38,428 bases of DNA from Syntrophorhabdaceae bacterium (GCA_026416315.1 JAOAFK010000098.1:1-38428), one strand, 5' to 3'; counted from the stretch's first letter, positions 10,678 to 38,428 are shown. Numbers and translations are program-made. The notes: generated by a model from the letters alone, not told the origin.

Positions 10678-10680
10678 AAT

Positions 10681-11205
10681 ATGAAATCTACAACAGTGAT
10701 ATGTGTAAGACACAGGGGTAATGTTGCTATTGGAGGCGACGGTCAGGTAACATTAAATACCACAGTTGTTAAACATACGGCAAAAAAGATAAGAAAAATA
10801 TATAAGGATAAATGTCTTGCTGGATTTGCCGGTGCTACAGCAGATGCATTTACCTTATTTGAAAGATTTGAAAAAAAACTCGAAGAGTATAATGGTAATA
10901 TTATAAGGGCCTCTGTTGAACTTGCAAAGGACTGGAGAACAGATAGACTTTTAAGGAGGCTTGAGGCACTGTTGATAGTTGCTGATAAAGAACATACCCT
11001 GATACTTTCAGGAAACGGTGATGTAATAGAGCCCGATGATGGCATTGCAGCTATAGGTTCAGGTGGCCCTTATGCACAGGCAGCAGCAAAGGCCCTTATA
11101 AAATATACAGATCTCACAGCTACTGAAATTGTGAAAGAATCCATGCGCATTGCCTCGGAGATATGTATTTATACTAATGATAGAATTGAGATAGAGGAAC
11201 TATAA
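10681..11205 (+). CDS. hslV: ATP-dependent protease subunit HslV
   Basis: The 174-aa protein has an N-terminal [10 protein letters not shown] with the Thr nucleophile and a GGDGQVT motif, followed by hslU. Confidence 0.95.
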
Positions 11206-12536: not shown

Positions 12537-12554
12537 AAAAATTTTGGAGCGTAT

Positions 12555-20072: not shown

Positions 20073-20099
20073 TCACAAACCTCCTGAAAAATTTTAATA

Positions 20100-20128
20100 A
20101 TTTAAACACTTGACGTTTACAAAGTCAA
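20100..20128 (-). promoter_or_regulatory. candidate rpsT promoter (-35 TTGACT, 17-nt spacer, -10 TTAAAT)
   Basis: On the - strand, TTGACT lies at 20128-20123 and TTAAAT at 20105-20100, upstream of the GGAGG/start of rpsT. The -10 is weak. Confidence 0.3.
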
Positions 20129-20158
20129 ATACAATTTAAATTTAATGGCTATTTTTGT

Positions 20159-22576: not shown

Positions 22577-22638
22577 CTACATCTTATTGATTATACAACC
22601 TCCATAAAAAATTATACAATATAAAAATTTAAATTAAT

Positions 22639-23904: not shown

Positions 23905-23916
23905 GACCCCTCCCTC

Positions 23917-24456
23917 TTATTTAAGATTTATTTTTTCTGCCAAATATTTTCTCGATTTGTTGTATATCGACACTATCTGGTGAATGAGATTGTCGTGTTC
24001 TCCCTGTCTAACTTCCCTTACCACTCTACCTGGTATACCCATGACAAGAGAATTGGGTGGGATATGGGCACCTGCCGAAACAAAACTGCCTGCCCCTATT
24101 ATGCTGCCCGATGAAATCACAGCACCATCCATGATAATCGCACCTATTCCTATGAGACATCGAGATTCAATGGTCGCACCATGAATGATTGCCCCGTGAC
24201 TAATCAGAGTTTCTTCGCCTATTTTAACAGGAAGACCTTCTGGAGATTCAACAAAGGCAAAATCTAAAATTGCTGCGTATCTCTCTACATGAATAGGTGC
24301 CCCATCTGCCCTAAGGACTGCCATGGGCCAAACACTTGAACCTTCTTCTAATATAACATTTCCAATAATTCTTGCTGAGATATCTACGTATACACCCCCT
24401 TTAAACTCTGGTCTTATACCTTCAAAACCACTTATAAAGCCATTTGTGTTATCCAT
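23917..24456 (-). CDS. gamma-carbonic-anhydrase-like / left-handed beta-helix (hexapeptide repeat) protein
   Basis: The 179-aa protein has hexapeptide repeats (IGNVILEEGSSVWP, IGEETLISHGAIIHGATIESRCLIGIGAIIMDGAVISSGSIIGAGSFV) and the YrdA/CaiE/PaaY-type tail ...LVMGIPGRVVREV. Its start overlaps the upstream gene's stop by 8 nt. Confidence 0.8.
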   Translation of the reverse strand: MDNTNGFISGFEGIRPEFKGGVYVDISARIIGNVILEEGSSVWPMAVLRADGAPIHVERYAAILDFAFVESPEGLPVKIGEETLISHGAIIHGATIESRCLIGIGAIIMDGAVISSGSIIGAGSFVSAGAHIPPNSLVMGIPGRVVREVRQGEHDNLIHQIVSIYNKSRKYLAEKINLK

Positions 24457-26512
24457 TTGCTACTCTCCTTTTCTCTTCTATAATTTTTTCTTTTTCAGTA
24501 TCTTTAACGATTTTTAAACCCTCAACAATTAGCTCACATATGTCTAAAACTTGTATGTTTTCATTTACGTTTAACTCTTTTAGACCATCTTCAAACATGG
24601 TAACACAGTAAGGACAACTCGTAGCTATTATGTTTGGCTTTTTCAATAGAGCCTCTTTTGTCCTTTCCCTATTAATCCTTGTTGCTGCATCATCTTCAAG
24701 CCACATCCGTCCGCCACCAGCACCACAACAAAAGGTATCTTTTTTTGAATTACCCATCTCTAATGGCAATTTTCCAGTGAACGATTTCAAGACATATCTC
24801 GGTTCTTCAATAATACTGTTATATCTTGCTAAGTAACATGAGTCGTGATAAACTATAGACTTCTCACCAAAGGCAAAATCCCTTTTGAGAACCTGATTTT
24901 TGTATAGCATGTTTAATAGCTCTGTGTGGTGAAAAACATTGAATTCTGCACCGTAAGCTCTATAGTCGTTTTTCAATGTGTTATAACAATGTGGACAAAT
25001 GGTTATTACATTCTTTACATTTAATTTCTTAAACAAATTTACATTCTTAATAGCAATACTGTCGAAAACATATTCATTGCCAAGCCTTCTTAAGGCATCA
25101 CCACAACACATCTCATCGGATCCAAGGATACCATAACTGACAGATGCCGTATTAAGCACAGTAACCAAAGAGTTTATAATCTTCTTCGTTCTCGCATCAA
25201 AAGATCCCATACATCCTACATACAAGAGATATTCATGATTTTCATTCTTTGAAAAGATTGGAATATCAAGATGTTGAGCCCATTTTCCCCTTTCTGAAGG
25301 TGCAATACCCCAGGGATTTGACCTCGCTTCAATATTTTCAAAGAAGGTAATGAGTTCTTCTGGAAATCTTACCTCTTCCATAACGAGGTTTCTTCTTATA
25401 TTTAGTATCTTTGGAAAGTGTTCTATAAAAACAGGACATACCTCAACACACGCACCACAAGTGGTGCAGTCCCAAATACTCTCCTCGTTTATGCTTCCTT
25501 CTCCATTACCAATAAGAGGAACTGGATAATTTAAAACAGGCATAGGTTTTCCAATTGTGTCAAATGGTCTATTGGAGATTATATATAAACCATTTTCCAT
25601 TAGATTTTTTTTCAACGTATGGATGAATTCTTTTGGGTTAAGTGTCTTTCCTGAGATATTAGCAGGACAAGAGGCCTTGCACCTTCCACATTCAGTGCAT
25701 GAAAGGGCATCAAGGAGGTCTTTCCAAGAAAAATCAGTGATTTTAGATATTCCAAAAGACATGTTTTTACTGAATTGCATCTTTGATGGAGATGTGGGAA
25801 AAGAAAAGTTCCTAAAGAAACAATTAGGAAGAGATGTAATTATATGAAGATGTTTACTGTATGGGATAAAGATGAGAAAGAACAAAAACAGTGATGCATG
25901 GACCCACCAAAAGATTCTATTGAGTATATAAAGTTCTGAGTCTTTCATTCCACTTATAATCATAGTTCTTAGAAACTCTGAAACAGGAAGAATTAAATCT
26001 TTTTCCTTAGGGTCTATAGCTGTTATATTCATTCCAAAATAGGCAGCCATAAGAAATCCAACAGTTGACAGTATAATATAGGCCTCTTTTGTGGATTCCA
26101 AGTAGGATGGTTTAATAACAACCCTCCTTAAAACTGCAAAAATCACGGCTATCATCACAACAGCAGACATTATATCAGCAAGCATATTAAGGAGCTTGTA
26201 AGGGAATTCTCCTATAAAAGAAAGTGAAAATTTAGGAAAAAAACCAGATAAAACAAACTCTAAATTTATAGGGAGAAGTACCATAAAACCCCAAAAAAGC
26301 ATGAAGTGGTTAAAACCAAATGTCTTTTTTAAAACCTTTTTCTGGAGAAAACCATAAAAGACCATATTTTTAAATCGTTCCCATAGTCTATCGAACCTGT
26401 ATTCCCAATTTCCAAGGGAAATAAGATTTATAAGTGTATAAATTCTTCTGATAAACACTACCATAGCAACTAAAAAGATAATTGCAAAGATTAAAGATTC
26501 TACTGGTTTCAT
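24449..26512 (-). CDS. membrane-bound FeS oxidoreductase (N-terminal polytopic domain, 2x[4Fe-4S] motifs, two CCG domains); candidate ETF:(mena)quinone oxidoreductase
   Basis: The 687-aa protein has about five hydrophobic helices in the first ~230 aa, including ...WWVHASLFLFFLIFIPYSKHLHII. Motifs are CTECGRCKASCP and CTTCGACVEVCP, plus two Cys-rich CCG-type blocks (YVGCMGSF...MCCGDA...ICPHCYNT and YHDSCYLARY...FCCGAGGG...SCPYCVTM). It lies 13 nt downstream of etfA. Confidence 0.8.
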   Translation of the reverse strand: MKPVESLIFAIIFLVAMVVFIRRIYTLINLISLGNWEYRFDRLWERFKNMVFYGFLQKKVLKKTFGFNHFMLFWGFMVLLPINLEFVLSGFFPKFSLSFIGEFPYKLLNMLADIMSAVVMIAVIFAVLRRVVIKPSYLESTKEAYIILSTVGFLMAAYFGMNITAIDPKEKDLILPVSEFLRTMIISGMKDSELYILNRIFWWVHASLFLFFLIFIPYSKHLHIITSLPNCFFRNFSFPTSPSKMQFSKNMSFGISKITDFSWKDLLDALSCTECGRCKASCPANISGKTLNPKEFIHTLKKNLMENGLYIISNRPFDTIGKPMPVLNYPVPLIGNGEGSINEESIWDCTTCGACVEVCPVFIEHFPKILNIRRNLVMEEVRFPEELITFFENIEARSNPWGIAPSERGKWAQHLDIPIFSKNENHEYLLYVGCMGSFDARTKKIINSLVTVLNTASVSYGILGSDEMCCGDALRRLGNEYVFDSIAIKNVNLFKKLNVKNVITICPHCYNTLKNDYRAYGAEFNVFHHTELLNMLYKNQVLKRDFAFGEKSIVYHDSCYLARYNSIIEEPRYVLKSFTGKLPLEMGNSKKDTFCCGAGGGRMWLEDDAATRINRERTKEALLKKPNIIATSCPYCVTMFEDGLKELNVNENIQVLDICELIVEGLKIVKDTEKEKIIEEKRRVANG

Positions 26513-26525
26513 ATTAACTCCTCTT

Positions 26526-27983
26526 TCAATTTTGGCTCATATTTGCCTTTTCTTTAAGGGAAGTAATTAGTGTCGGTAATATTTCAAACACGTCGCCTAC
26601 TATCCCAACATGAGCGATTTCAAAAATAGGTGCGTTTTTATCTTTATTGATGGCTATTATATGTTCCGCATTTTGCATCCCTACTATATGCTGGATTGCA
26701 CCAGAGATCCCACAGGCCAAATAAAGCTTGGGTCTTATGGTTTTTCCTGTTTGTCCTATCTGTCTGTCATGGGTTATCCAACCTGCATCCACTGCACATC
26801 TGGAACCGCCAACAACACCTCCAAGGAGAGAGGCAAGTTCTTCAAGGAGTGAAAAATTCTTCTTTTCAAGCATACCCTTTCCACCACTTACAACAATATT
26901 GGCAGTTCTGATATCGTTCTCATCACCCTTGGAAACCGGTATTATCTCGAGGATCTTTGTTGCTATATCCTCTTCTTTCAATTCGATGGTTTCTCTAATG
27001 AGTTCACCATATCTTTCCTTAAAAGGAGGCATAGGTAGAACCATAGGTCTCACCGATGCCATTTGTGGTCTTGCATGTTCTGTTAAGATGGTGGCCATAA
27101 CATTACCACCAAATGCAGGTCTTGTCTGTTCAAGGAGTCTTTTTTCCTTGTCTATGCTCAATTTTGTACAATCTGCAGTAAGACCTGTTTTAAGAGCAGT
27201 TGCAACGGCACTTGCCAAATCCCTTCCCAATCCTGTCGCACCCATGAGTAGTATCTCTGGATGATACTTGTTCACGAGATATACAATACAATCAAGGTAA
27301 GGACGTGTGCGGTAGTATTTTAATGTGGGATGGTCGATGAGATATACCTTATCAGCCCCATATCCAAAGGCCTCTAATACAAGATGTTCCACATTGTGCC
27401 CAAGTAGTATAGCCGAAAGATCAGTACTTAATTCTGAAGCAAGTTGGCTTCCTATGCCTAATAACTCCCATGATACTTGATTTGCCTTACCATCAAAATG
27501 TTCTATAAAAACCCACACACTTTCCCATTTTATTTTTTCTGTAGTTGATATCTTTTCTGTTGATGTTGAATCATCAATATCCCTATTTGTGAGTTCTTTG
27601 AAATCTTCCAGAGCCCCAATTTTGCATACATCGATACATTTTTTACATCTGTTGCATTTACCCAGATTGATTATTGGTATCCCTTTTGTATCGAGGGTAT
27701 CGTATTCTATGGCATTTACTTGGCACACCTTAATGCATTCACCACATCCATTGCATTTTTCATCTTTTAGGATATAAACCAGTTCAAATGCACCCACAGG
27801 GCATGCCCTTAAACACTTTTTACATCCTATACACTTTGTGTAATTTACAATAGGCGTACCTTTTGTATCATGGGTATCATATTCCAAGGCATTAACTGTA
27901 CAAGAAGGTTCGCATCTTCCGCAGGCTATGCATTTCTCGGTAATTAAACGGACCTTAGGTCTTGTTTTTTTCTGCTTAGACAT
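26526..27983 (-). CDS. etfA: electron transfer flavoprotein alpha subunit fused to two tandem N-terminal 2x[4Fe-4S] ferredoxin-like domains
   Basis: The 485-aa protein has 16 Cys in four CxxCxxCxxxC motifs across aa 18-126. The C-terminal part is typical EtfA/FixB (VVSGGKGM, GGSRCAVDAGW, GQTGKTIRPKLYLACGISGAIQHIVGM). There is an 8-nt overlap with etfB. Confidence 0.9.
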   Translation of the reverse strand: MSKQKKTRPKVRLITEKCIACGRCEPSCTVNALEYDTHDTKGTPIVNYTKCIGCKKCLRACPVGAFELVYILKDEKCNGCGECIKVCQVNAIEYDTLDTKGIPIINLGKCNRCKKCIDVCKIGALEDFKELTNRDIDDSTSTEKISTTEKIKWESVWVFIEHFDGKANQVSWELLGIGSQLASELSTDLSAILLGHNVEHLVLEAFGYGADKVYLIDHPTLKYYRTRPYLDCIVYLVNKYHPEILLMGATGLGRDLASAVATALKTGLTADCTKLSIDKEKRLLEQTRPAFGGNVMATILTEHARPQMASVRPMVLPMPPFKERYGELIRETIELKEEDIATKILEIIPVSKGDENDIRTANIVVSGGKGMLEKKNFSLLEELASLLGGVVGGSRCAVDAGWITHDRQIGQTGKTIRPKLYLACGISGAIQHIVGMQNAEHIIAINKDKNAPIFEIAHVGIVGDVFEILPTLITSLKEKANMSQN

Positions 27984-28806
27984 TTTGTGTACTCCTTATA
28001 ATCTTCCAATTTTCTAAGTTTTTTAAAATCATCTCCACAGCAAAGCAAGTTCCATTTCCATCTCCGTTTCCTTCAAAGATTTCACCTTTCTGTTTTTCAG
28101 GAGCGAATATCCTTTTAACTGTTGTAGGTGAGCCTGTTAGACCTATAGTATTTGGATCCAACTTTAAAAAATAGTTATTCCAGATAGGTATTGATAGACC
28201 TTCTGCATATATTCTCCGGGGCACAGAAGGATAGCGAGGCCTATTTGCATCTTTTTCTATGGTTAAAAGAGAAGGCAGGCTCGTTTCTATTATCTCAAAC
28301 CAATCTTCTAATTTCCTTCTAACTACGATCCTTTTTTTAGTAAGATCAAGAGATACTATCTTGTCAACTAAGGTTGCCTGATTAAAACCTAAACGGGTTG
28401 CAATACCTGGTCCTACTTGGGCAGTATCACCATCTATGGTTTGTTTACCGCATATAATGATATCTACTGGTTCCTTTTTAGAGATCTCCAATATGGCATT
28501 AGCTAAAACATTACTGGTGGCAAGTGTGTCGGCACCACCAAACACCCTGTCACTCAAAAGTATCCCATCATCAGCACCCATTGCAATTGCCTTTCTAATG
28601 ACTGCATCAGCCATAGGAGGTCCCATTGATAGAACAGTTACCTTACCCCCGTATATGTCTTTAATCCTCAATGCCTCTTCAACAGCAGGGGCATCAAATG
28701 GATTCATGATAAATGGAACCCCCTCTCTAACGAGGGTATTTGTAACAGGATCTATTTTTACCTGGGTTGTATCAGGTACCATCTTAACACAAACAATTAC
28801 ATGCAT
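27976..28806 (-). CDS. etfB: electron transfer flavoprotein beta subunit (FixA/bifurcating-type sequence features)
   Basis: The 276-aa protein has the N-terminal IVCVKMVPDT, FGGADTLATS, GKQTIDGDTAQVGP and GLTGSPTTV motifs. A GGGAGG RBS lies 7 nt upstream. Confidence 0.9.
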   Translation of the reverse strand: MHVIVCVKMVPDTTQVKIDPVTNTLVREGVPFIMNPFDAPAVEEALRIKDIYGGKVTVLSMGPPMADAVIRKAIAMGADDGILLSDRVFGGADTLATSNVLANAILEISKKEPVDIIICGKQTIDGDTAQVGPGIATRLGFNQATLVDKIVSLDLTKKRIVVRRKLEDWFEIIETSLPSLLTIEKDANRPRYPSVPRRIYAEGLSIPIWNNYFLKLDPNTIGLTGSPTTVKRIFAPEKQKGEIFEGNGDGNGTCFAVEMILKNLENWKIIRSTQNV

Positions 28807-28844
28807 GGATTTGCCTCCCTTTTTATCGTTTTATTTTTTTTCGA

Positions 28845-28873
28845 TTTTTATCATTGAAAGGAATACTTGACAA
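28845..28873 (-). promoter_or_regulatory. candidate promoter of the etfB operon (-35 TTGTCA, 17-nt spacer, -10 TAAAAA)
   Basis: On the - strand, TTGTCA lies at 28873-28868 and TAAAAA at 28850-28845, within the 181-nt gap upstream of etfB. The -10 is imperfect and the background is AT-rich, so chance matches are likely. Confidence 0.3.
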
Positions 28874-28892
28874 TATCAAAAGATTTCATAGA

Positions 28893-28917
28893 AAATACTT
28901 ATATAAAATAAGTATTT
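28893..28917. promoter_or_regulatory. perfect 10-bp inverted repeat AAATACTTAT-N5-ATAAGTATTT (candidate operator/activator site, or a weak ctpA terminator)
   Basis: Read directly: 28893-28902 is the reverse complement of 28908-28917. It lies just upstream of the putative -35 of the etf operon and about 70 nt after the ctpA stop. Confidence 0.35.
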
Positions 28918-28987
28918 CTATAATTTTACTGAACTTTTTTATTTGATGTAAAAATGGAAGTTTATATGTTGAAGTATTATTTTTATT

Positions 28988-30274
28988 CTATTTACCCCTT
29001 AAGGCCTCCCAGCTTTTTAAGATCTGCAGGGCCATAGAAAGCTGAAAGTCATTATCATCTATCTTTGTTTTATCCTTTTCCTCTATCTTTTGATTTTTAT
29101 CAACTTCAAGGTGTCGCTCTAAATCTTTTTCCTTTAATGGGATGCCTTTTTCCTTAACCCTTACGAGATTGCTATCTACTATTATATCAGGTGTTATACC
29201 TTCTGCCTGTATGGAACGACCCTTTGGAGTATAATATTTTGCGGTTGTAAGCTTCACAGCAGAACCATCACCAAGAGGCAAAATTGTCTGTACAGAACCT
29301 TTTCCGAATGTTTTTTGTCCCACAATTATTGCCCTTTTATGATCCTGCAGGGCACCTGCCACAATTTCAGAGGCACTTGCACTGCCTTCGTTTACAAGGA
29401 CAACAAGAGGTCCTTCATAATCGCCCTTTTTCTTTTCTGCATGGAAAGTCATCCTGTCTTCCTTTTTTCTGCCCTCAATATAGACAATCATACCTTCTTT
29501 TAAAAATTTATCAGAGACCTCAACTGCCTGCTCTAAAAGTCCACCAGGATCATTTCTTAAATCAAGGACAATTCCTTTTAATGATTTATCTTTATTTGCC
29601 TTTACCAGTTCTATTATTGCATTATCGAGATCCTTTGATGTCTTTTCTTGAAACTGGGTAATTCTTATATACCCAAAACCATCTTCAAGTAGCCTAAATT
29701 TTACACTTTTTGTCACAATGATATCCCTTACAATAGTAAAATCCTTAGGAGCTGTAAACCCTTCTCTCATAATCGTGAGGGTAACGGGTTTTCCTTTCTG
29801 GCCCCTTATCATCTTAACTACATCTACAAGACTCATATTCTTTGTGATTTTACCATCAATCTTTATGATATTATCCCCTGATTTCAACCCTGCCTTGTAT
29901 GCAGGTGTATCTTCAATGGGTGTTATTACTGTTGGAAAACCATCCTTTATAGTAATTTCAATACCAATACCACCAAATTCACCCTTTGTCTCTGTTTGCA
30001 TGTCTTTATACATATCAGGGGTAAGAAAGGATGAATGGGGATCAAGGGATTCTAACATGCCTTTTATGGCAGCATATATAATGTCCTTATCTTTTACATC
30101 TTCTACGTAATTCCTTTTTATAAGGTCTATAACATCAGAGAAGGTTTTTAAGTATTCATATATCTCTCCTGAGTCAGCGGGTACTGATTTCTTACCGTAA
30201 GCACCTATCATAAAACCAAGGAGAAAAATAAAGATTAAGGCAATGCTTACTATGATTTTATATCTAATTTTCAT
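28988..30274 (-). CDS. ctpA: S41-family carboxyl-terminal processing protease (PDZ domain)
   Basis: The 428-aa protein has an N-terminal TM anchor, a PDZ block (GIGIEI...PAYKAGLKSGDNIIKIDG), LRNDPGGLL, the Ser motif NEGSASASEIVAGALQD and the Lys motif TFGKGSVQ. Confidence 0.9.
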   Translation of the reverse strand: MKIRYKIIVSIALIFIFLLGFMIGAYGKKSVPADSGEIYEYLKTFSDVIDLIKRNYVEDVKDKDIIYAAIKGMLESLDPHSSFLTPDMYKDMQTETKGEFGGIGIEITIKDGFPTVITPIEDTPAYKAGLKSGDNIIKIDGKITKNMSLVDVVKMIRGQKGKPVTLTIMREGFTAPKDFTIVRDIIVTKSVKFRLLEDGFGYIRITQFQEKTSKDLDNAIIELVKANKDKSLKGIVLDLRNDPGGLLEQAVEVSDKFLKEGMIVYIEGRKKEDRMTFHAEKKKGDYEGPLVVLVNEGSASASEIVAGALQDHKRAIIVGQKTFGKGSVQTILPLGDGSAVKLTTAKYYTPKGRSIQAEGITPDIIVDSNLVRVKEKGIPLKEKDLERHLEVDKNQKIEEKDKTKIDDNDFQLSMALQILKSWEALRGK

Positions 30275-30294
30275 TTATGTTTCCTCCTGACTTG

Positions 30295-30323
30295 ATAATA
30301 CACCAATATAATTAAACTTTCAA
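30295..30323 (-). promoter_or_regulatory. candidate ctpA promoter (-35 TTGAAA, 17-nt spacer, -10 TATTAT)
   Basis: On the - strand, TTGAAA lies at 30323-30318 and TATTAT at 30300-30295. GGAGGAA and the ATG at 30274 follow within about 20 nt. Confidence 0.35.
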
Positions 30324-30331
30324 TTAAAAAC

Positions 30332-30361
30332 TTGACAACACAAGGTCAATGAATATATGGT
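30332..30361 (+). promoter_or_regulatory. candidate promoter of the GYD gene (-35 TTGACA, 18-nt spacer, -10 TATGGT), back to back with the ctpA promoter
   Basis: TTGACA lies at 30332-30337 and TATGGT at 30356-30361. The RBS AAGGGGGAG comes before the ATG at 30385. Confidence 0.3.
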
Positions 30362-30384
30362 TTAAAAAATAAAAAGGGGGAGAT

Positions 30385-30669
30385 ATGCCAGTATATATTA
30401 TGTTCAGCAGGTTAACAAATGAGGGTAGGGCAACAATAAAAAGACACCCTGAAAGGATAAAGGAGGTCAATGATGAAATAGAAACAATGGGTGCAAAGGT
30501 AATTGCCCAATATGCTACCCTCGGAATATATGATTTCGTTAATATTTTAGAAGCACCTGACAATGAAACTATTGCAAAGATATCCATTGAGATAGGTTCA
30601 CGGGGAAGTGTACAGCTAATAACATTCCCCGCAATCCCTATCTTTGAATTTATAGAAAAGATGGGCTAA
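30385..30669 (+). CDS. GYD-domain protein (function unknown)
   Basis: The 94-aa protein MPVYIMFSRLT.EG...IK......E..GAKVIAQYATLGIYDFVNILEAPDNET has the eponymous G(I)YD motif and the size of the GYD family. Confidence 0.8.
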   Translation: MPVYIMFSRLTNEGRATIKRHPERIKEVNDEIETMGAKVIAQYATLGIYDFVNILEAPDNETIAKISIEIGSRGSVQLITFPAIPIFEFIEKMG

Positions 30670-30696
30670 CTCTATCTTAACCCATCTTCTTTTTTT
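30658..30696. terminator. Rho-independent, probably bidirectional terminator between the convergent GYD gene and the Mo-hydroxylase operon
   Basis: The stem pairs 30658-30669 (AAGATGGGCTAA) with 30677-30688 (TTAACCCATCTT): 11 bp with one C/A mismatch and a 7-nt loop. It is followed by C+T7 (30689-30696) on the + strand and by a U-rich run on the - strand. It overlaps the 3' ends of both CDSs. Confidence 0.55.
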
Positions 30697-31247
30697 GCCT
30701 CTTCCTTTTTAAGACCACCGACCCTTGCATGAGGTCTTCCCCCATCAGTTACAGCAATTGCAACAAGGATTTCATCTGACTTTGGTGCATCATTAACGGA
30801 CACGGTCATTCCGTCAAAATGAGAGCGAACAAAGGCTGCATCTTTATAATGTAACGGTATGTCTAATACATCACCCATTCTGCCAATTTTTTTAACAGAT
30901 GGAATGATTGCCTTTCCACCGCCAACTGCATTTCTTAAGGGTGTGCCAAGCTTTGGATGAAGGATCGCTGCTGCGTGTTCAAGTTCGCCCTTTTCCCCCA
31001 CTATCGCAGCCTTACCGTAGCTTTCTGCCTCCCTTTCTTTACCCAATGCTTCTACAGCCCTTTCTCCGAGTAATCTGCCGAGTTCTTCACCTATATCAAT
31101 GAGTATGTCAAGATTTTCTTCATATTTACCTGCAAAAGGATTCTTTATAACTGCCACAGCAGCAACCTTTCTAATGGGCTTTTCTGCCTTTTTTTCTCCA
31201 TCGGAATAGATGTCTTCAATTATTGTAACAATCTTTCTGATCTCCAT
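30672..31247 (-). CDS. 'amino acid synthesis' (AA_synth) family protein, function unknown
   Basis: The 191-aa protein reads MEIRKIVTIIEDI...KVAAVAVIKNPFAGKY...ESYGKAAIVGEKGELEHAAAILHPKLG...GGGKAIIPS...DIPL...AFVRSHFDGMTV...DEILVAIAVTDGGRPHARVGG, which matches my recollection of this family. A GGAGGTG RBS lies 5 nt upstream of the ATG, inside the preceding gene. Confidence 0.7.
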   Translation of the reverse strand: MEIRKIVTIIEDIYSDGEKKAEKPIRKVAAVAVIKNPFAGKYEENLDILIDIGEELGRLLGERAVEALGKEREAESYGKAAIVGEKGELEHAAAILHPKLGTPLRNAVGGGKAIIPSVKKIGRMGDVLDIPLHYKDAAFVRSHFDGMTVSVNDAPKSDEILVAIAVTDGGRPHARVGGLKKEEAKKEDGLR

Positions 31248-32067
31248 ATAACACCTCCAGTTTTATATTTTTTACTCCATTTATGGTTGTTACCATGTTG
31301 CCTTTTAAATATATTAATGCATCAAAAATCACCTTTTTTTCTTTTAAATTATAGGCAATATTTAATCCATTTTGTAAGGCAATGCTTGCTTCTTCTTGAT
31401 TTAACTTGTCAATATTTAATGTTACATATTCTTCAGGAATATCTGTTGTGGGATCTATCAGATAGGCCTTTTTTCTCAATACATGTTCAGTATCTACGTT
31501 TGTTTTATTGCAGATATATGTTACCGCAGCATCGGCAATGGCACCACTTTTTGCTATAACGGTTCCTATTTCTGCTAACCCGAGGGTAAAACTCCTTCCT
31601 CCTAATCCACTTGTAGCTATACCATATTCTTTAAAGCCCTTAATATTTAATATATACGGTGTATGGGTATTTTTATTTATATGCCCTATAGAAACTCTTA
31701 TAGTCCTTTCGAGGTTTTCATTAAAAAGGGATATATCGCCTCCATTGTTTACAGAAATAAAGTCAAAACCATCCTGCTTTAAAAAATTTTTTATCTCATC
31801 AGAAACTGCACCAGCAACAGATGCCATGGGGGTTAAGGTCTCTTCATCAATAGCCTTCACACCCTCTATCATATATTTTACAACATCTGGCATATTATGG
31901 AATCTCTTTATTTTATATGCCTTTAGCCTTAAGACAGGAAGATATTCCCTGATAGATTCGAGTATATTTTTTATGTAAACCTCTAATCTTGCCCTGTCAG
32001 GTTCACAGTTCGTACCACCTTTTTCTGTTTTTACTACAAGACTTGCTGGTCCTATTTCAATATACAT
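31216..32067 (-). CDS. UPF0280-family protein (ApbE-like fold motifs)
   Basis: The 283-aa protein has TPMASVAGAVSDEI, VNNGGDI, GIATSGLGGRSF and GAIADAAVTYI. The last three resemble the ApbE motifs (GGD, ATSG, AD..T). Family assignment is from memory. Confidence 0.65.
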   Translation of the reverse strand: MYIEIGPASLVVKTEKGGTNCEPDRARLEVYIKNILESIREYLPVLRLKAYKIKRFHNMPDVVKYMIEGVKAIDEETLTPMASVAGAVSDEIKNFLKQDGFDFISVNNGGDISLFNENLERTIRVSIGHINKNTHTPYILNIKGFKEYGIATSGLGGRSFTLGLAEIGTVIAKSGAIADAAVTYICNKTNVDTEHVLRKKAYLIDPTTDIPEEYVTLNIDKLNQEEASIALQNGLNIAYNLKEKKVIFDALIYLKGNMVTTINGVKNIKLEVLYGDQKDCYNN

Positions 32068-32077
32068 GACAGATTTT

Positions 32078-33577
32078 CTATTTTAGGACATCTTCAACAG
32101 GTATTATAGCCTCTATATGACCTCCTATCTCTTTAAATGTTTCCAGAGTCATGGTATATTCCACAGGCAAAATGAAAGATGGTGTTGGTGAAAGATAGAT
32201 GCTACCGTACTTTATCTTTCCATAATCCACAATAAAATTTATTCCACCACCTGGAAATATAAAAGGTTTCGCACCGCCTATGGTGATCTTTACCTTTCCT
32301 TCATGGACGGCCCTTGTAAGCTTTATGGGGTTTTTTGTCACCCCTGCCCGGGCTGAACCACCCACACCTGCTGCAAACACAACACTTATCTTTGAAGGTT
32401 CACAGGAATCTCTTAATATCTCTAAAAATTTCATAGCTTCTTCTGTGGGTTTTTCTTCTATAAATGCCCTATTTTTAACTTTAAAAAATGCGTATTTTTT
32501 TCCTGTGGTTTCTGTAATAAGGAGTGTCATCCCTTCAGGGCATCTATCCCAGTCCACCTCTTTTATGACATCCAGGGGATTTTCAATATCTGTTCCGCCC
32601 CAGCCACTACCTTTATTGAGAAAATACCGACCTTCTGTGCTCTTTTGACCTTTTATATAAATACCTGAGCGTTTTTTGTTTAGATATCTACCAGAGGGAT
32701 GCTCACTGAAGAGTCCAGTGATGTGTCCGTCGAGGATAATGACTTCATCGGCTGCATTAAAGATATAAGGTGCAAACAGACCTGTTGTTGCACTTCCACA
32801 ACCAACGCGCATCCTCTCTTCACTTTTGCCGTTTACAACAGGCGGAGCCCCTATAGATACCTCTACCTTTGCACCATCTTCTATTTCAAGGGTAACCTTT
32901 TTACCCTGCAAAATCTCGAAGATTGTCTTTGCAGCAAAAAGGGCATCTTTTGATGTCAGGATATTCACACCGCCTAAAGATAACATCTTTGAACCGTATT
33001 CTTCTGTGCATAGATGACCTATATGTCTTTTACCTTTTCTTCGTACATATATCTTTTTTCCTTCTTCTCCCATATAGAGGTCAGTATCTACTTTTAATTT
33101 TATACCGCTGTAGCTTAAAGGTGCCTCTGTTACCACCGTAACAATATCAATTCCATCTCTGATACCCTTTACAATAAAAGGAGATGGTCTGAAATCAGGA
33201 TAAGTGGTGCCAGAACCTATGCCAGTGATTAGTGGTTTATCGATAATCCCACCTTCTTCATGACCTAATATATCTTCAAGCTCTTCATAGGTATGAACCC
33301 TTGCCTTTCTTTTGATCATTCCATTTTCGTTAAAATATCTTTTGCATGCACCGTAAGCACCTTCAGGAATTCTACACATCACAGGGCACGCATCGCATTT
33401 GGGAAAATGTGATTCATATGGGCTGAAGACTCCTTGAGGACAGACCTTCATACATGTGGTACATTCCACACAGCCTTCATTGATTTTCACCTTCTTTTCT
33501 ACAATGTCAATCACTTCAAGGGGACACACTTCTTCACAGAGACCACAACCAATACATTTATCTATGTCTATTTTCAT
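32078..33577 (-). CDS. 6-hydroxynicotinate-reductase-like iron-sulfur protein
   Basis: The 499-aa protein has an N-terminal 2x[4Fe-4S] ferredoxin domain (CIGCGLCEEVCP, CVECTTCMKVCP) and a third Cys cluster, CDACPVMC-N9-C. The remainder is a Gly-rich body of about 400 aa. Size and cofactor motifs fit what is reported for Eubacterium barkeri Hnr, and it lies adjacent to an enamidase-like gene. Confidence 0.65.
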   Translation of the reverse strand: MKIDIDKCIGCGLCEEVCPLEVIDIVEKKVKINEGCVECTTCMKVCPQGVFSPYESHFPKCDACPVMCRIPEGAYGACKRYFNENGMIKRKARVHTYEELEDILGHEEGGIIDKPLITGIGSGTTYPDFRPSPFIVKGIRDGIDIVTVVTEAPLSYSGIKLKVDTDLYMGEEGKKIYVRRKGKRHIGHLCTEEYGSKMLSLGGVNILTSKDALFAAKTIFEILQGKKVTLEIEDGAKVEVSIGAPPVVNGKSEERMRVGCGSATTGLFAPYIFNAADEVIILDGHITGLFSEHPSGRYLNKKRSGIYIKGQKSTEGRYFLNKGSGWGGTDIENPLDVIKEVDWDRCPEGMTLLITETTGKKYAFFKVKNRAFIEEKPTEEAMKFLEILRDSCEPSKISVVFAAGVGGSARAGVTKNPIKLTRAVHEGKVKITIGGAKPFIFPGGGINFIVDYGKIKYGSIYLSPTPSFILPVEYTMTLETFKEIGGHIEAIIPVEDVLK

Positions 33578-33605
33578 GACTCACCTCAATCAAGTTCTAA
33601 TTGAT

Positions 33606-34754
33606 TTATAATATTTTTCTTACAGGCGGCGGTGTGTTTCTGCTGACTTGAGTTCTAATAATACCATCCACTATGACCATGGCGATACCTGGTATGTCTC
33701 CTAATTCAATGGCTGCCTTAGCATCTTTACCCTCAGAACCCATAGGTGCATCTATAATTTGAATATCTGCCTCTTCACCTTCCTTTATCATGCCATGTTT
33801 TAAACCAAAGACCTTCTTTGTATTTCCTGTGGCACAGCATATGGCAATCTCGGCTGATATCCCTGAAAGACTCGATATGAAATTCACCATTCTCCATATA
33901 CCAAGGGGGATTACGCCTGTTCCTGATGGTGCATCATTTCCAATGATGAGTCTTTCGAGTATGCTTTTATTTTTCATATATCTTGCTATTTCAAATGCAG
34001 ATAGGGGGTTTCCGCAGTGCACTATCTCTATGGCTGAGTCTGTTTCATCAATAATTCTTTTTGCCTCATTTACAGGGATACTTGTTGGCCCTCCATTTAA
34101 ATGACATGCCACAGTCGGTCTTGCCGTTAAAACATCATTACATGTAACCGTTGAGCTTCCTGGGACAGAAGTGCCACCTACATGCATGAGCACCTTCATG
34201 CCGTATTTTTTTGCCCATTCAACCATAATTTTTGCTTCATTTGCAGCCTTTATACTGCCTAATCCTATCTCACCTACAAGCCACACACCATCTTCAGAAA
34301 GTTCTTTAAAATCTTCCTCAACAAGGCCTTTTTCAAGGATTAAGGCACCACCATATACCTTTACCCCTGAAGGTCTCAATCTTGCAAATGATTTATGGGC
34401 CAGAACGGCAAGGGCCTTTGTCCCTTTTGGGTCTGTGGGTCTGCCTGGTAAATGCACTTCGCCAGCTGAAATCATAGAGGTAACACCTCCGTGGAGACTG
34501 CTATCTATAAAACCAATTTGATTCTGTCTCGGCGTGAAGTCACCAAAAACTGGATGTGTATGGGAATCGATAAAACCAGGACAGACTGTCATACCGTTTG
34601 CATCTATAACTTTTTCAGCGTTATGGGAAATATCACTGCCTATGGATTTTATCTTTCCTTCTTCAATCAATATGGAAACAGGACCTTCAATAATAGGATT
34701 TTTTATATCGCCCGTGAAGATTGTTCCTATATTTTTTATAATCGTACCGCCCAT
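33606..34754 (-). CDS. amidohydrolase-superfamily enzyme, enamidase-like
   Basis: The 382-aa protein has an N-terminal IIKNIGTIFTGDIKNP, the metal motif GFIDSHTHP, GGVTSMISAG, GGPTSI and GNDAPSGTG. Its length and N-terminus resemble enamidase (1,4,5,6-tetrahydro-6-oxonicotinate amidohydrolase). Confidence 0.7.
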   Translation of the reverse strand: MGGTIIKNIGTIFTGDIKNPIIEGPVSILIEEGKIKSIGSDISHNAEKVIDANGMTVCPGFIDSHTHPVFGDFTPRQNQIGFIDSSLHGGVTSMISAGEVHLPGRPTDPKGTKALAVLAHKSFARLRPSGVKVYGGALILEKGLVEEDFKELSEDGVWLVGEIGLGSIKAANEAKIMVEWAKKYGMKVLMHVGGTSVPGSSTVTCNDVLTARPTVACHLNGGPTSIPVNEAKRIIDETDSAIEIVHCGNPLSAFEIARYMKNKSILERLIIGNDAPSGTGVIPLGIWRMVNFISSLSGISAEIAICCATGNTKKVFGLKHGMIKEGEEADIQIIDAPMGSEGKDAKAAIELGDIPGIAMVIVDGIIRTQVSRNTPPPVRKIL

Positions 34755-34779
34755 GGCTAAACCTCCTTTAAAATAAGAC

Positions 34780-36909
34780 TTATAGTCTTCCTTTCAATCT
34801 TTCAATATCACAGGGCAATTCATACACCCTTACTCCTGTTGCATCGGCTATAGCATTTATAATACTTGCAGCCTGGGGGATGAGGGCAGGCTCGCCCACA
34901 CCTTTTGCTCCAAATGGCCCCGTTGGCTCCTCATCTTCTAATATGAAAGTTTCTATTTCAGGCATATCCATGGACGTAGGTATATAGTAGTTATCGAAGG
35001 ATAGGGTTTTACCAGGTATAAATTCTTCCATAAGGGCAAACCCTATGCCCATGGCTATACCGCCATAGATTTGACCTTTAATATTATTAACATTTATTGC
35101 CTTTCCCACATCGTGGGCTGCATGGACTTTAATCACATTTGTATAACCTGTTATTGTGTCAACTTCTACCTCAGTCATATGGGTGGCATAGGCATATGTT
35201 GCATAAGGAACTCCTTTTGAAGTGTTAGGGTCAAGGGGGGTTGTAGGTGGGTCAAAAAAACCTTCGAACACAGGAAATCCTTTGTCTCTATACTTTTTTA
35301 CTATGGACTTGAGATCTCTGTTTTTATAAAAACCTTCATTTTCAAGAAATTTTCTCATCTCCACTGCTGCGTTATATACAGCCCTTCCAGATATATATGT
35401 CTGTCTGCTTGCAGATGTGGAACCTGCATCCTTTGTGAAATCCGTATCGGCCCTTATTAAAAGGATATCATTTCTGTCTATTTCGAGGGTTTCGCACAGA
35501 ATCTGCACAAAGACCGTGTCAGAACCCTGTCCTATTTCGCATGCCCCTGTATATAGCAATATTTTTCCATCCTCACTTATGGATAATATTCCATATGATG
35601 GGTTTGATATACCGGTATTTCCCATACCGTAGAACATGGAGCCTAAGCCAAAACCCCTTCCATCTTTTTTAATCCTGCCTATCCAGTAGGGTTCAATTGC
35701 CTTTAGGGTATCAAGATAGCCTACACTTGCTTCAAGAAGCTGTGATGTGGCCGTTAAAGAGCCTCTTCTTAAACCGTTTAAAAATCTTATTTGAAGGGGG
35801 TCTATTTTAATTTCATTAGCCATTAGATCCATCTGTGATTCATGGGCAAAGGCAATCTGGGGCACACCAAAACCCCTCATGGCACCACTTATTGGATTAT
35901 TTGTATAAAACATCCTGCTGTCTACATGGACATTTGGAATTTCATAAGGACCTGTTGCATGAATCGCTGCCCTTAAGCATACAGTTTCTCCATATGATAT
36001 ATAAGGACCTGTGTCACCTATGATATCAACCTTTATGGCCTTTATCTTTCCGTCCTTTGTAGCACCTGTCTTGTAATTGATGTATAGGGGATGCCTCTTT
36101 GTATTAGATAGAAAGCTTTCTTCCCTTGTATATCTCATAAGAACTGGTCTTTTTGTATGATATACTGCAAGGCCGATATACCCTTCCACAGTAAGGTCGA
36201 GTTTACCACCAAAACCACCACCTGTTGTGGCCTGAATGATTCTTACTTTTTCTTCTGGAATATTTAGTATTCTCGATATCTCTTTTCTTTTGTAATGCAC
36301 ATTCTGTGTGGAAGATACTACAACTATTCTTCCTTTATCATCAGGATATCCAAAACCAGCCTCTGTTTCAAGATATGCATGATCAAGCCATGTGGTTTTA
36401 TATTGTCTTTCAATCACCACATCCGATTCTTTAAAACCTTTTTCTACATCACCTTTTATGACCTTCCTATGGGATAGGAGATTACCTTTTTCATGGATGA
36501 GTGTTGACGATCCCATGGATTTATATGGATCTGTAATAATCTCCATATCTTCATATTCAATGTCTATAAGCTTTGCTGCTTCTCTTGCCTTTTTTTCACT
36601 TTCTGCGATGACTATAAGTATCGGCTCGCCTATGTATCTCACAATGTCTTTTGCGAGGAGAGGTTGGTCTTTTTTTATTACACCAAAAAAAGGGTTTCCG
36701 GGTATATCTCCATGGCTTAATATCTTTATAACTCCATGGAGTTCAAGGGCTTTATCAATTCTTATGGACTTTATCTTTGCATGAGGTCTTTGGCTTCTAA
36801 CCAGAACAGCAAAGACCATACCGTCCATGGAATAATCACCTGCATAGAGTGCCTTACCTTTTACCTTTTCAATGGCATCTATTCTGTCAATACTGGTATA
36901 TATGGGCAT
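34780..36909 (-). CDS. xanthine dehydrogenase-family molybdopterin-binding (large) subunit
   Basis: The 709-aa protein has an a/b-hammerhead N-terminus (GKALYAGD), QATTGGGFGGK, SGAMRGFGVPQ, EIGQGS and the catalytic-Glu motif AKGVGEPALIP. Confidence 0.9.
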   Translation of the reverse strand: MPIYTSIDRIDAIEKVKGKALYAGDYSMDGMVFAVLVRSQRPHAKIKSIRIDKALELHGVIKILSHGDIPGNPFFGVIKKDQPLLAKDIVRYIGEPILIVIAESEKKAREAAKLIDIEYEDMEIITDPYKSMGSSTLIHEKGNLLSHRKVIKGDVEKGFKESDVVIERQYKTTWLDHAYLETEAGFGYPDDKGRIVVVSSTQNVHYKRKEISRILNIPEEKVRIIQATTGGGFGGKLDLTVEGYIGLAVYHTKRPVLMRYTREESFLSNTKRHPLYINYKTGATKDGKIKAIKVDIIGDTGPYISYGETVCLRAAIHATGPYEIPNVHVDSRMFYTNNPISGAMRGFGVPQIAFAHESQMDLMANEIKIDPLQIRFLNGLRRGSLTATSQLLEASVGYLDTLKAIEPYWIGRIKKDGRGFGLGSMFYGMGNTGISNPSYGILSISEDGKILLYTGACEIGQGSDTVFVQILCETLEIDRNDILLIRADTDFTKDAGSTSASRQTYISGRAVYNAAVEMRKFLENEGFYKNRDLKSIVKKYRDKGFPVFEGFFDPPTTPLDPNTSKGVPYATYAYATHMTEVEVDTITGYTNVIKVHAAHDVGKAINVNNIKGQIYGGIAMGIGFALMEEFIPGKTLSFDNYYIPTSMDMPEIETFILEDEEPTGPFGAKGVGEPALIPQAASIINAIADATGVRVYELPCDIERLKGRL

Positions 36910-36913
36910 GTTT

Positions 36914-38221
36914 TTAACCTCTTAAAATTTTTATAAGGAGGCCTTCAAGGACAGGAAGTTTGTATTTATATGATGGTCTCATCCCGCTTTTTTCTACAAT
37001 TCCTTTTAAAACCATCGAAACAGCTTCTTTTATCAAAGCCTCTTGTCTTTTTTTACCCTTCAGAAAATTTTCCACATCTTTTGGTCTAAAAGGCATGGGT
37101 GTGCAAGAACCTATAGAAATCCTAATATCTTGGAAGACATCTTTATCTTCTTTAATTGCATATGCAATAGACAGGCGGGCTATGGCAAGGGAAGCCCTTT
37201 TTGCAACCTTTTCGTATCCTTCTCTGTAGCCTTCAAGAGATGTGATCTTTATATATGTGAGGAGTTCATCTTCATTTATGGATGTTTTATATGGTGCAAC
37301 AACAAAATCTTCAAGGGCCACCTCTCTCTTTGTATTTTTTGATTCAATAACACATAAGGCATCGTGAATTAAAAGGGGAGGGATGGAATCAGCCGCAGGT
37401 GAGGCATTGATTATATTTCCACCTATTGTTCCCATATTTCTGATCTGGGGGCTACCAATCATGCCACATGCTAAAGCAAGGCTTTTTGCCTTTTTATTTA
37501 TGGTTTCATTTCTGTTTAGTTCAGCATGGGTAATGGTAGAACCCACTATAATTTTTCCATTTTCTTCTTTTACAACATTAAGTTCATCCAAACCCCATAA
37601 TTCTATAAAATCATGAGTTTTTTCTTCTTTTCTTTCTTTAACAAGGAGGTCTGTACCACCAGCAATAATTTTTAAACCCTTTTTTTCAGAGAGTTTTTTC
37701 AGTATCTCCTCTTTACTACTATGCGGTTGTATCTTCTTTTCTACAGATGGTATATTATCCAATATGCCGTATATCTCAACTTTTTGGATGGCCTCAACAA
37801 TCTGCTTGTATCCTGTACATCTGCAAAGATTTCCGCTGATTGCCTCTTTTATTTTTGTAATATAGGGTTTCTTTTCTTTTAGAAGAAGACTATAGGCGGA
37901 AAGGAGCATGCCTGGTGTACAGTATCCGCACTGAACGGCCCCTTCCTTTATAAATGCTTCCTGCAAGGGATGTAGTTCACCATTAGCATTTAAAAACTCC
38001 ACTGTTTTTACATCACAACCATTTACCTTTGAAGAAAGGGTAAGACATGAATAGTGTGGTTCATTGTCAATAAGAACTGTACATGTTCCACATTCACCGA
38101 TTCCACAACCTTCCTTTACGCTTTTTATTGAGAATCTTTCCCTTAATGTATAGATGAGTCTTTCGTTTTTATCAACCTCACATTCCACATTATTTCCATT
38201 TAAAATGAAAGATATTATCAT
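36914..38221 (-). CDS. fused [2Fe-2S] (small) and FAD-binding (medium) subunit of the Mo-hydroxylase
   Basis: In the 435-aa protein, aa 1-146 carry CGIGECGTC...C and QCGYCTPG...CRCTGY. Aa ~165-435 carry IIAGGTDLL, IRNMGTIGGNI and a CO-dehydrogenase-flavoprotein-like C-terminus. The gap to the Mo subunit is 4 nt. Confidence 0.9.
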   Translation of the reverse strand: MIISFILNGNNVECEVDKNERLIYTLRERFSIKSVKEGCGIGECGTCTVLIDNEPHYSCLTLSSKVNGCDVKTVEFLNANGELHPLQEAFIKEGAVQCGYCTPGMLLSAYSLLLKEKKPYITKIKEAISGNLCRCTGYKQIVEAIQKVEIYGILDNIPSVEKKIQPHSSKEEILKKLSEKKGLKIIAGGTDLLVKERKEEKTHDFIELWGLDELNVVKEENGKIIVGSTITHAELNRNETINKKAKSLALACGMIGSPQIRNMGTIGGNIINASPAADSIPPLLIHDALCVIESKNTKREVALEDFVVAPYKTSINEDELLTYIKITSLEGYREGYEKVAKRASLAIARLSIAYAIKEDKDVFQDIRISIGSCTPMPFRPKDVENFLKGKKRQEALIKEAVSMVLKGIVEKSGMRPSYKYKLPVLEGLLIKILRG

Positions 38222-38224
38222 ACC

Positions 38225-38428
38225 TTATCTCCCCATGAGGCTTGGTAAAAACAAAGCTATTTTGGGAAAAATTGTAAGGATTATAGCAACTGCTATAATT
38301 GCGAGAAGAAAAGGTGTTGATCCTTTAAAGATTTCAGTCATGGGTACATCCTTTGCAATTCCAGCAAGGGTATAGACATTTAAACCAACAGGTGGTGTGA
38401 TAAGACCTGCCTCCATCATAAGAACCGC
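38225..38428 (-). CDS. TRAP transporter large permease (DctM-like), C-terminal fragment; the 5' end lies outside the window
   Basis: The frame is open to the window edge. The tail ...MMEAGLITPPVGLNVYTLAGIAKDVPMTEIFKGSTPFLLAIIAVAIILTIFPKIALFLPSLM is typical of a DctM C-terminus. The stop lies 3 nt before the FeS/FAD gene start. Confidence 0.8.
   Translation of the reverse strand, partial: AVLMMEAGLITPPVGLNVYTLAGIAKDVPMTEIFKGSTPFLLAIIAVAIILTIFPKIALFLPSLMGR

Follow-up and report, generated by a model that had tools for sequence, protein, structure and literature searches.

The DNA analysed here is a stretch of 38,428 nt from a Syntrophorhabdaceae bacterium (GCA_026416315.1, JAOAFK010000098.1:1-38428), termed the window, the last part of which carries a gene cluster that is probably devoted to the catabolism of nicotinate. 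ORF calling places seven co-directional open reading frames (ORFs) on the minus strand between positions 30672 and 38428, counted, as are all positions below, along the whole window. In the direction of transcription, the first is the 3' end of dctM, encoding the large permease of a TRAP transporter (38225-38428), of which the last 67 codons are present before the window edge cuts the gene; it is followed by the fused [2Fe-2S] and FAD subunit of a molybdenum hydroxylase (36914-38221; 435 aa), which corresponds to NdhS plus NdhF of nicotinate dehydrogenase, and by the molybdopterin subunit of what is probably such a dehydrogenase (34780-36909; 709 aa), which corresponds to NdhL plus NdhM in one chain. 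The remaining four genes encode a putative enamidase (Ena; 33606-34754; 382 aa), a homologue of 6-hydroxynicotinate reductase (Hnr; 32078-33577; 499 aa), an ApbE-like protein of the UPF0280 family (31216-32067; 283 aa), and a protein of the AA_synth family, also known as DUF1185 (30672-31247; 191 aa). The domains assigned to these products in an earlier interpretation of the same DNA (the sequence-only reading) agree with Pfam and NCBIfam, and the junctions that it listed, namely 3, 4, 25, 28, and 10 nt followed by a 32-nt overlap, are correct. The DctM fragment matches TIGR00786 (E 6e-12) at profile positions 346-405 of 405 and is 91% identical by tblastn to the C-terminus of DctM in a relative (L001), and its TAA stop codon is separated by 3 nt from the ATG of the next gene.

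Taken together, the region is read, with a probability of roughly 0.75, as the final two-thirds, in the direction of transcription, of an operon for nicotinate catabolism from a Syntrophorhabdaceae-like member of the Desulfobacterota, in which UPF0280 and AA_synth are regular accessory genes. In the proposed route, the TRAP transporter would import nicotinate, a two-chain Mo/FeS/FAD hydroxylase orthologous to NdhFSLM of Eubacterium barkeri would convert it into 6-hydroxynicotinate, Hnr would reduce 6-hydroxynicotinate to 1,4,5,6-tetrahydro-6-oxonicotinate (THON), and Ena would hydrolyse THON to 2-formylglutarate and NH3. UPF0280 may install the flavin of Hnr, AA_synth may act at the ring-opened product of THON, and an aldehyde dehydrogenase (ALDH), assigned to the operon by synteny, would turn 2-formylglutarate into glutaryl-CoA and CO2 by an Azorhizobium-type glutarate route and not by the B12-dependent fermentation of E. 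barkeri. By synteny as well, the start of the operon would hold genes for a PuuR-like regulator, the ALDH, DctP, and DctQ.

The evidence that carries this reading begins with Ena, which aligns over residues 1-379 with the E. barkeri enamidase of PDB entry 2VUN (E 1.7e-132, 56% identity). At least 97% of 83 sequences retain its HxH pair (H64, H66), H190, H217, and D273; an HxH motif, two further His residues, and an Asp are the typical metal-site positions of amidohydrolases. Orthology supports the opening of THON to 2-formylglutarate and NH3 by this 382-aa protein, and the chemistry of THON and enamidase has been described (PMC9304392). A search with the 2VUN sequence also led to a 20-kb contig (L086) with an Ena 97% identical to 2VUN, on which the genes run in the order LysR, hnr (encoding a 499-aa Fe-S protein), ApbE-like, Hgd, NdhF, NdhS, NdhL, NdhM, permease, Ena, AA_synth, B12 mutase, Mii, MgmL, Dml, Hmd, DmdA, and DmdB; judged by its gene content, this contig is a complete E. 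barkeri-type nicotinate fermentation set, and the same gene set occurs in Acetobacterium bakii (L087).

The molybdopterin subunit of the window contains the Pfam domains Ald_Xan_dh_C, MoCoBD_1, and MoCoBD_2, and its best PDB match is NdhL of nicotinate dehydrogenase (3HRD_A; 393 bits over 400 residues). Together with the 212 bits scored against NdhM (3HRD_B), the sum is about 605 bits, compared with 298 bits for 4-hydroxybenzoyl-CoA reductase, the next-best solved family. Its identity to the proteins of L086 is 47% for NdhL and 42% for NdhM, while the FeS/FAD subunit (Fer2, Fer2_2, FAD_binding_5, and CO_deh_flav_C domains) is 44% identical to NdhS and 30% identical to NdhF of that contig. The molybdopterin subunit is therefore probably that of a nicotinate dehydrogenase, as judged from these similarities.

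Hnr of the window is 45% identical to the hnr product of L086 over 495 of 499 residues (E 9e-126) and combines an N-terminal 2x[4Fe-4S] domain with a further 4-Cys motif and a catalytic portion of some 380 aa. Its two CxxCxxCxxxCP motifs and the C61-x2-C64-x3-C68-x9-C78 motif provide 12 Cys residues, all of which are invariant in 73 sequences. There is no exact database record for the protein, and relatives at 90% and 82% identity were used; several sources name its homologues 6-hydroxynicotinate reductase. The AlphaFold model of Hnr has a mean predicted local distance difference test score (pLDDT) of 86 and a predicted template-modelling score (pTM) of 0.81, and in a Foldseek comparison with the PDB only its 53-residue N-terminal ferredoxin domain found significant matches; no Hnr structure was found deposited in the PDB. 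With no PDB fold neighbour for the catalytic part, no fold-based mechanism follows for it. By the model, residues from about 120 to 499 of this widespread flavo-Fe-S reductase (encoded within 32078-33577) appear to adopt an undescribed fold. The three enzymes thus named, a molybdenum hydroxylase, Hnr, and Ena, had been proposed as the three opening reactions in the E. barkeri pathway in the sequence-only reading, and this proposal is supported by 3HRD as the closest structure of the first, the 45% identity of the second to L086 Hnr, and the 56% identity of the third to enamidase.

The same enzymes could instead serve the degradation of another carboxylated N-heterocycle, such as a pyridine or pyrimidine carboxylate, by paralogues of the nicotinate enzymes, and some features of the operon point in that direction and weigh against nicotinate. 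The molybdopterin subunit scores below every NCBIfam equivalog cut-off, with selenium-dependent xanthine dehydrogenase as the top-scoring family; the subunit architecture is unlike that of E. barkeri, in that FeS and FAD parts are fused, as are NdhL and NdhM; identities to the E. barkeri proteins are only 30-59%, and the substrate is assigned from identities of 45-56% to them; and Ena variants that occur without Hnr or Ndh exist (L072). Another substrate is nevertheless considered unlikely, given the distance in score between nicotinate dehydrogenase and the next solved family, the identity of 43-62% at which both Ena and Hnr are held across all phyla, the presence of the same genes in full nicotinate fermentation clusters, and the RefSeq annotation of proteobacterial 6-hydroxynicotinate reductases adjoining NicAB-type nicotinate dehydrogenases.

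The place of the two accessory genes in this operon was assessed by a one-genome-per-species scan with an Ena alignment, which gave 79 loci and, together with contigs from the sequence search, 83 non-redundant loci, in which gene presence was scored by tblastn with the window proteins. AA_synth was present in 74 of the 83 loci and Hnr in 76, Hnr was accompanied by UPF0280 in 70, and UPF0280 without Hnr occurred in none. All four genes (Ena, Hnr, UPF0280, and AA_synth) were found in 66 loci, with the order Ena-Hnr-UPF0280-AA_synth in 53, and most gene absences fall at contig ends. These counts are not phylogenetically independent, since Ena served as the anchor of the sampling and a single order contributes about half of the loci. 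The taxa include Desulfobacterota, Bacillota, Actinomycetota, and one metagenome-assembled genome (MAG) each of Treponema and Planctomycetaceae, and the closest relatives of the window are Syntrophorhabdaceae MAGs (70-92% identity in Ena). The adjacency of genes for Hnr, UPF0280, AA_synth, and an amidohydrolase in other genomes, to which the sequence-only reading had referred, is thereby confirmed, and RefSeq plasmid records likewise annotate successive genes as "6-hydroxynicotinate reductase", "UPF0280 family protein", and "amino acid synthesis family protein". In the Tepidanaerobacter MAG locus L050, two enamidase copies lie within 21 kb (596-2600 and 10001-13700), one beside AA_synth and the other beside Hnr and UPF0280.

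This distribution bears on the possibility that the two accessory genes are passengers unrelated to the pathway. No additional enzyme is required by the known chemistry that leads from nicotinate to 2-formylglutarate, and in the 2006 work on E. barkeri purified Hnr and Ena were reportedly active on their own. A passenger status is nonetheless very improbable in view of the four-gene association across several phyla, proteobacterial plasmids, and several gene orders, of the fact that UPF0280 never occurs without Hnr, and of the conservation of AA_synth, which at 52-91% identity across phyla (74 of the 83 Ena loci) is as conserved as Ena.

A second possibility, raised in the sequence-only reading, is that the two proteins perform undescribed downstream steps that replace the lower pathway of E. 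barkeri. As that reading had stated, none of the later E. barkeri enzymes is encoded here: tblastn (E <= 1e-3) detected no match in the window to Hgd, Hmd, 2-methyleneglutarate mutase, Mii, DmdAB, or Dml, and the lower-pathway genes are also absent from the operon in the relatives L001, L005, and L007. Moreover, UPF0280 and AA_synth close the operon, and AA_synth shows the high conservation and the many invariant polar residues that an enzyme would be expected to have. Among the 83 loci, two types of lower pathway lie beside the four genes: 38 loci have an aldehyde dehydrogenase, in most cases together with a TRAP transporter, and the other type is represented by the Hgd/Hmd/Mgm/Mii/Dml/Dmd set, of which Hgd was scored in 24 loci and Mgm in 14. 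UPF0280 and AA_synth are present with a complete lower pathway (Hgd, Hmd, Mgm, Mii, MgmL, Dml, and DmdAB) in L086, L087, and about a dozen other loci (including L058-L060, L064, L066, L069, L075, and L083); on both L086 and L087, hnr is immediately followed by the ApbE-like gene and ena by AA_synth, and the counterparts in L086 are 59% (AA_synth) and 34% (UPF0280) identical to those of the window. Since both genes co-occur with a complete lower pathway, they are not its replacement. UPF0280 resembles ApbE, a protein-modifying and not a small-molecule catabolic fold, and the next step would be accounted for by an ALDH similar to methylmalonate-semialdehyde dehydrogenase (MMSDH) in the operon of the relatives, which leaves the replacement idea improbable. 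The suggestion that these two genes make the system novel is not supported either, as the cluster types differ by the MMSDH-like ALDH, which in the relatives lies just past the position corresponding to the window end.

As accessory genes of the nicotinate operon, UPF0280 and AA_synth differ in the company they keep. In 64 of 70 loci UPF0280 and hnr are separated by no more than 300 nt, and UPF0280 is absent from every locus that has Ena and AA_synth but no Hnr. Relatives carry the more recent family PF27030 (AbpE_bact), and a profile of 15 homologues matches the structural-genomics protein 2O34 (E 4.5e-20) and the FAD:protein FMN transferase of Vibrio cholerae (6NXI/6NXJ; E 1e-3), with NNGGD, ATSG, and ADAxxT aligned. 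Across 15 diverse homologues, eight residues (N108, G109, G110, D111, S153, G154, D179, and T183) do not vary; in ApbE, the GGD, ATSG, and ADxxxT motifs have FAD- and metal-binding roles, the Asp and Thr of the last being metal-binding. No signal peptide or lipobox was found in UPF0280, and the lack of a signal peptide fits a cytoplasmic client. Compared with ApbE/Ftp FAD:protein FMN transferases, UPF0280 shares the GGD, ATSG, and ADAxxT motifs, including the invariant Asp and Thr of the last, and differs in its length (283 aa versus about 330), the missing export signals, and its sub-threshold Pfam score.

According to the 2006 study of Alhapel and colleagues, Hnr is said to carry a covalently bound flavin. 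Because UPF0280 is ApbE-like with its motifs kept, tracks Hnr, and would find in Hnr a covalent flavin, it is proposed to be a cytoplasmic flavin transferase that installs this flavin, a role given even odds on these sequence relationships. Of the options left by the sequence-only reading, which had considered either undescribed steps or maturation, the maturation role is favoured for UPF0280. A narrower version, in which UPF0280 would be an ApbE-type transferase dedicated to Hnr with a new acceptor site in a flavoenzyme lacking a solved relative of its catalytic fold, is put forward more tentatively, at somewhat less than an even chance.

Several results speak against this assignment. The Pfam ApbE score (PF02424) of UPF0280 is 22.6 bits, below the gathering cut-off of 25.6, and the match of its profile to a true ApbE is weak at the E value given above; UPF0280 was also not found within 10 kb of Hnr in L035, L040, and L055, which have ample flanks. 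A canonical ApbE acceptor motif, defined as [ST]GA[ST], was sought in Hnr and rejected: the similar stretch GCGSAT lies in an invariant MRVGCGSA, the next residue, T264, varies among the 73 sequences and is Val in nine of them, and no [ST]GA[ST] is conserved. In NCBIfam, UPF0280 matches PRK04334 ("hypothetical protein") below the cut-off, and the literature searched contained no paper pairing ApbE with hydroxynicotinate and none mentioning UPF0280. The co-occurrence of UPF0280 with Hnr and its ApbE cofactor motifs make the origin of the covalent flavin of Hnr directly testable.

AA_synth of the window matches PF06684 with 251.8 bits (gathering threshold 27) over profile positions 1-175 of 175, and its PDB matches are 2QTP (SPO0826; E 1.6e-69) and 3BYQ (BB2672; E 1.2e-40), both labelled "uncharacterized". 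These structures, reported by the JCSG in 2010, are hexamers with a variant of the Bacillus chorismate mutase-like fold and a conserved His/Glu/Arg cavity (PMC2954203); they belong to the same family as the window protein, which in the window is tied to Hnr and Ena. The transporter genes described alongside the DUF1185 structures are probably those of the "putative nicotinate ABC transporter" of proteobacterial nicotinate clusters (PMC3511419). The family comprises 1844 clusters at 50% identity (E <= 1e-3). Among the Ena-anchored loci the protein is unusually conserved, and numerous charged residues and His residues, as well as a C-terminal EDGLR, are invariant. The AlphaFold model of AA_synth (pLDDT 80) suggested some likeness to the C-domain of dihydrodipicolinate reductase and to PurM-like N-domains, which was judged uninformative at template-modelling scores of at most 0.33, and a link to RidA/YjgF was set aside because it consisted only of the common chorismate-mutase-like fold class with no direct detection.

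In most loci AA_synth is accompanied by Ena and Hnr, and its other contexts are of two kinds. In L053, L072, L074, L078, and L084, which come from several Clostridia, one Siminovitchia, and one Planctomycetaceae locus, Ena and AA_synth, in part with Hgd, are found without Hnr, UPF0280, or Ndh, a hint that the substrate of enamidase has another origin in units that lack Hnr and a molybdenum hydroxylase. In L072 (2184-12668), the Ena-AA_synth pair follows genes for an amide/urea-type ABC transporter, a CN_hydrolase, a cytidylate-kinase-like protein, and a DASS transporter. The alphaproteobacterial plasmid loci L088-L090, in turn, combine Hnr, UPF0280, and two copies of AA_synth with hydantoinase/oxoprolinase A/B, and Ena was not found within 9-10 kb there; a strict pairing of AA_synth with Ena, considered at one stage, was dropped after these plasmids. 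Their gene content suggests that hydantoinase/oxoprolinase A/B may provide an alternative, ATP-dependent ring opening of THON. In the plasmid clusters of L088 (9022-12497), L089 (9959-13548), L090 (10112-13725), L091, and L092, the two AA_synth paralogues are in tandem, and a ferredoxin-NADP reductase gene lies nearby.

These contexts share THON and its ring opening, and a role of AA_synth is therefore proposed at the ring-opened product, where it may deaminate or tautomerise 2-(aminomethylene)glutarate or 2-formylglutarate, an activity that is considered less likely than not. Counting against it, enamidase alone reportedly turned THON into 2-formylglutarate in vitro in the hands of Alhapel and colleagues in 2006, so that AA_synth would not be strictly required, and a Foldseek search of the PDB with the AA_synth model returned only its own family and no characterised neighbour. 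A function as 2-formylglutarate decarboxylase was rejected as unlikely, since AA_synth also occurs in E. barkeri-type clusters, whose pathway loses none of the six carbons.

The fate of 2-formylglutarate was approached through the relatives L001 and L007, which are collinear with window positions 28985-38428 at about 80% DNA identity. Beyond DctM, both carry, in the same orientation and at intergenic distances of 1-78 nt, DctQ, DctP, a 494-aa ALDH, and a 180-aa helix-turn-helix/cupin (PuuR-like) regulator; of the TRAP transporter, the C-terminus of DctM is thus seen in the window and DctQ and DctP in the relatives. The ALDH of the relatives scores 382 bits against TIGR01722, the family of CoA-acylating MMSDH, compared with 295 bits for the next family, and 338 bits against PDB entry 5TJR. 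It aligns over its full length with MMSDH (TIGR01722; 5TJR, 1T90), which it also resembles in keeping the catalytic Cys (SGQRC) and lacking a general-base Glu. NGNGKN, aligned to GGAKN/TGAKN of MMSDH, stands in place of ELGGK, the motif that supplies this Glu in hydrolytic aldehyde dehydrogenases.

2-Formylglutarate is malonate semialdehyde with a carboxyethyl group on C2, and, as a 2-substituted malonate semialdehyde, it would yield glutaryl-CoA and CO2 in an MMSDH-type reaction. The conversion of 2-formylglutarate, CoA, and NAD+ into glutaryl-CoA and CO2 by the MMSDH-like ALDH is considered slightly better supported than not from the family resemblance. In the Azorhizobium route, Kitts and colleagues are said to have found in 1992 that the C7 carboxyl is lost as CO2. 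The proposed reaction agrees with that route, since Azorhizobium caulinodans degrades THON via glutarate (PMC3511419). The weight of this proposal is reduced in that the ALDH of the relatives falls below the TIGR01722 cut-off (382 versus 448.5 bits), in which it differs from true MMSDH, and in that the ALDH, DctP, DctQ, and the regulator are known from the contigs of relatives, beyond the window end.

As far as gene content shows, the operon belongs to a known class, that with the first three E. barkeri steps and without the B12-dependent lower pathway; such clusters were reportedly described in nine Proteobacteria in the abstract of the 2006 paper by Alhapel and colleagues. Specific to the window are the Syntrophorhabdaceae-like lineage, the two-gene molybdenum enzyme, and the TRAP transporter, to which the MMSDH-like dehydrogenase would be added by synteny. 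Compared with the nicotinate cluster of E. barkeri (Alhapel et al., 2006; 3HRD, 2VUN), the window has orthologues of Ndh, Hnr, and Ena, and it shares UPF0280 and AA_synth with the E. barkeri-type contig L086, where they follow hnr and ena, respectively. It lacks Hgd, Hmd, the B12 mutase, Mii, Dml, and DmdAB, encodes the molybdenum enzyme in two genes where E. barkeri has four, and has a TRAP transporter where the E. barkeri-type cluster has a PTS_EIIC_2-type permease; its relatives possess the MMSDH-like ALDH and a PuuR-like regulator, whereas the E. barkeri-type cluster has LysR.

Proteobacterial nicotinate clusters, as in A. caulinodans and Bradyrhizobiaceae, hold two conserved unknown proteins (PMC3511419), and in the plasmid examples genes for hnr, UPF0280 family, and amino acid synthesis family proteins are adjacent, as in the window. 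They differ from the window in their ferredoxin-NADP reductase, tandem AA_synth, and ABC-type transporter, in the use by some of hydantoinase/oxoprolinase A/B in place of Ena, and in their hosts, the window organism being of an anaerobic Desulfobacterota-type lineage. Proteobacterial Hnr also lacks the N-terminal 2x[4Fe-4S] domain, matching the window protein from residue 60 with the 4-Cys motif kept.

What the operon itself contributes to this pathway, known since 2006, is only a further lineage and a gene architecture that differs slightly, and the gain lies in sharper hypotheses for two widespread "hypothetical" families, UPF0280 and DUF1185. DUF1185 tracks the ring opening of THON regardless of the enzyme responsible, and this gives the family a concrete context in place of the unsupported "amino acid synthesis" label; if the proposed activity is true, DUF1185/AA_synth would be an enzyme of lactam ring opening that had so far gone unrecognised, acting as an enamine deaminase or tautomerase. 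Likewise, if its assignment is true, the MMSDH-like dehydrogenase would form a one-step link from 2-formylglutarate to glutaryl-CoA and feed nicotinate into the central glutaryl-CoA pathway of syntrophic Desulfobacterota. The roles suggested for UPF0280, AA_synth, and the MMSDH-type dehydrogenase would together complete an anaerobic route from nicotinate to glutaryl-CoA.

The operon was further held in the sequence-only reading to end at a terminator at 30658-30696 and to form a single transcription unit. The hairpin is real: its 14-bp stem has a folding free energy (dG) of -19.4 kcal/mol with a z-score of -4.3, none of 200 shuffled sequences folds as well, and it covers the stop codons of both AA_synth and a convergent GYD-domain gene (30385-30669, plus strand), as a possible bidirectional terminator. 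The consensus terminator scan did not call the hairpin at 30658-30696, and its U-tract is weak. A single transcription unit is therefore plausible. The GYD-domain gene encodes 94 aa and converges on AA_synth with a 2-nt gap and a common hairpin, and the convergent GYD/AA_synth arrangement is kept in the Syntrophorhabdaceae relatives L001, L005, L007, L009, and L010. The overlap of UPF0280 and AA_synth is 32 nt in the window and 11 nt in L001 and L005; it is longer in the window because the UPF0280 ORF is extended at its 3' end by seven codons relative to that of the relatives (283 versus 276 aa).

Outside the operon, an 8.9-kb block of the window (20099-28984) is missing from the otherwise collinear L001 and L007, which match the window at about 80% DNA identity on both sides. 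This block, an insertion or deletion between rpsT and a Ctp protease gene, encodes a PAS-LuxR regulator, a PAS protein, a hexapeptide transferase, a CCG/4Fe-4S oxidoreductase, a ferredoxin-EtfA fusion, and EtfB.

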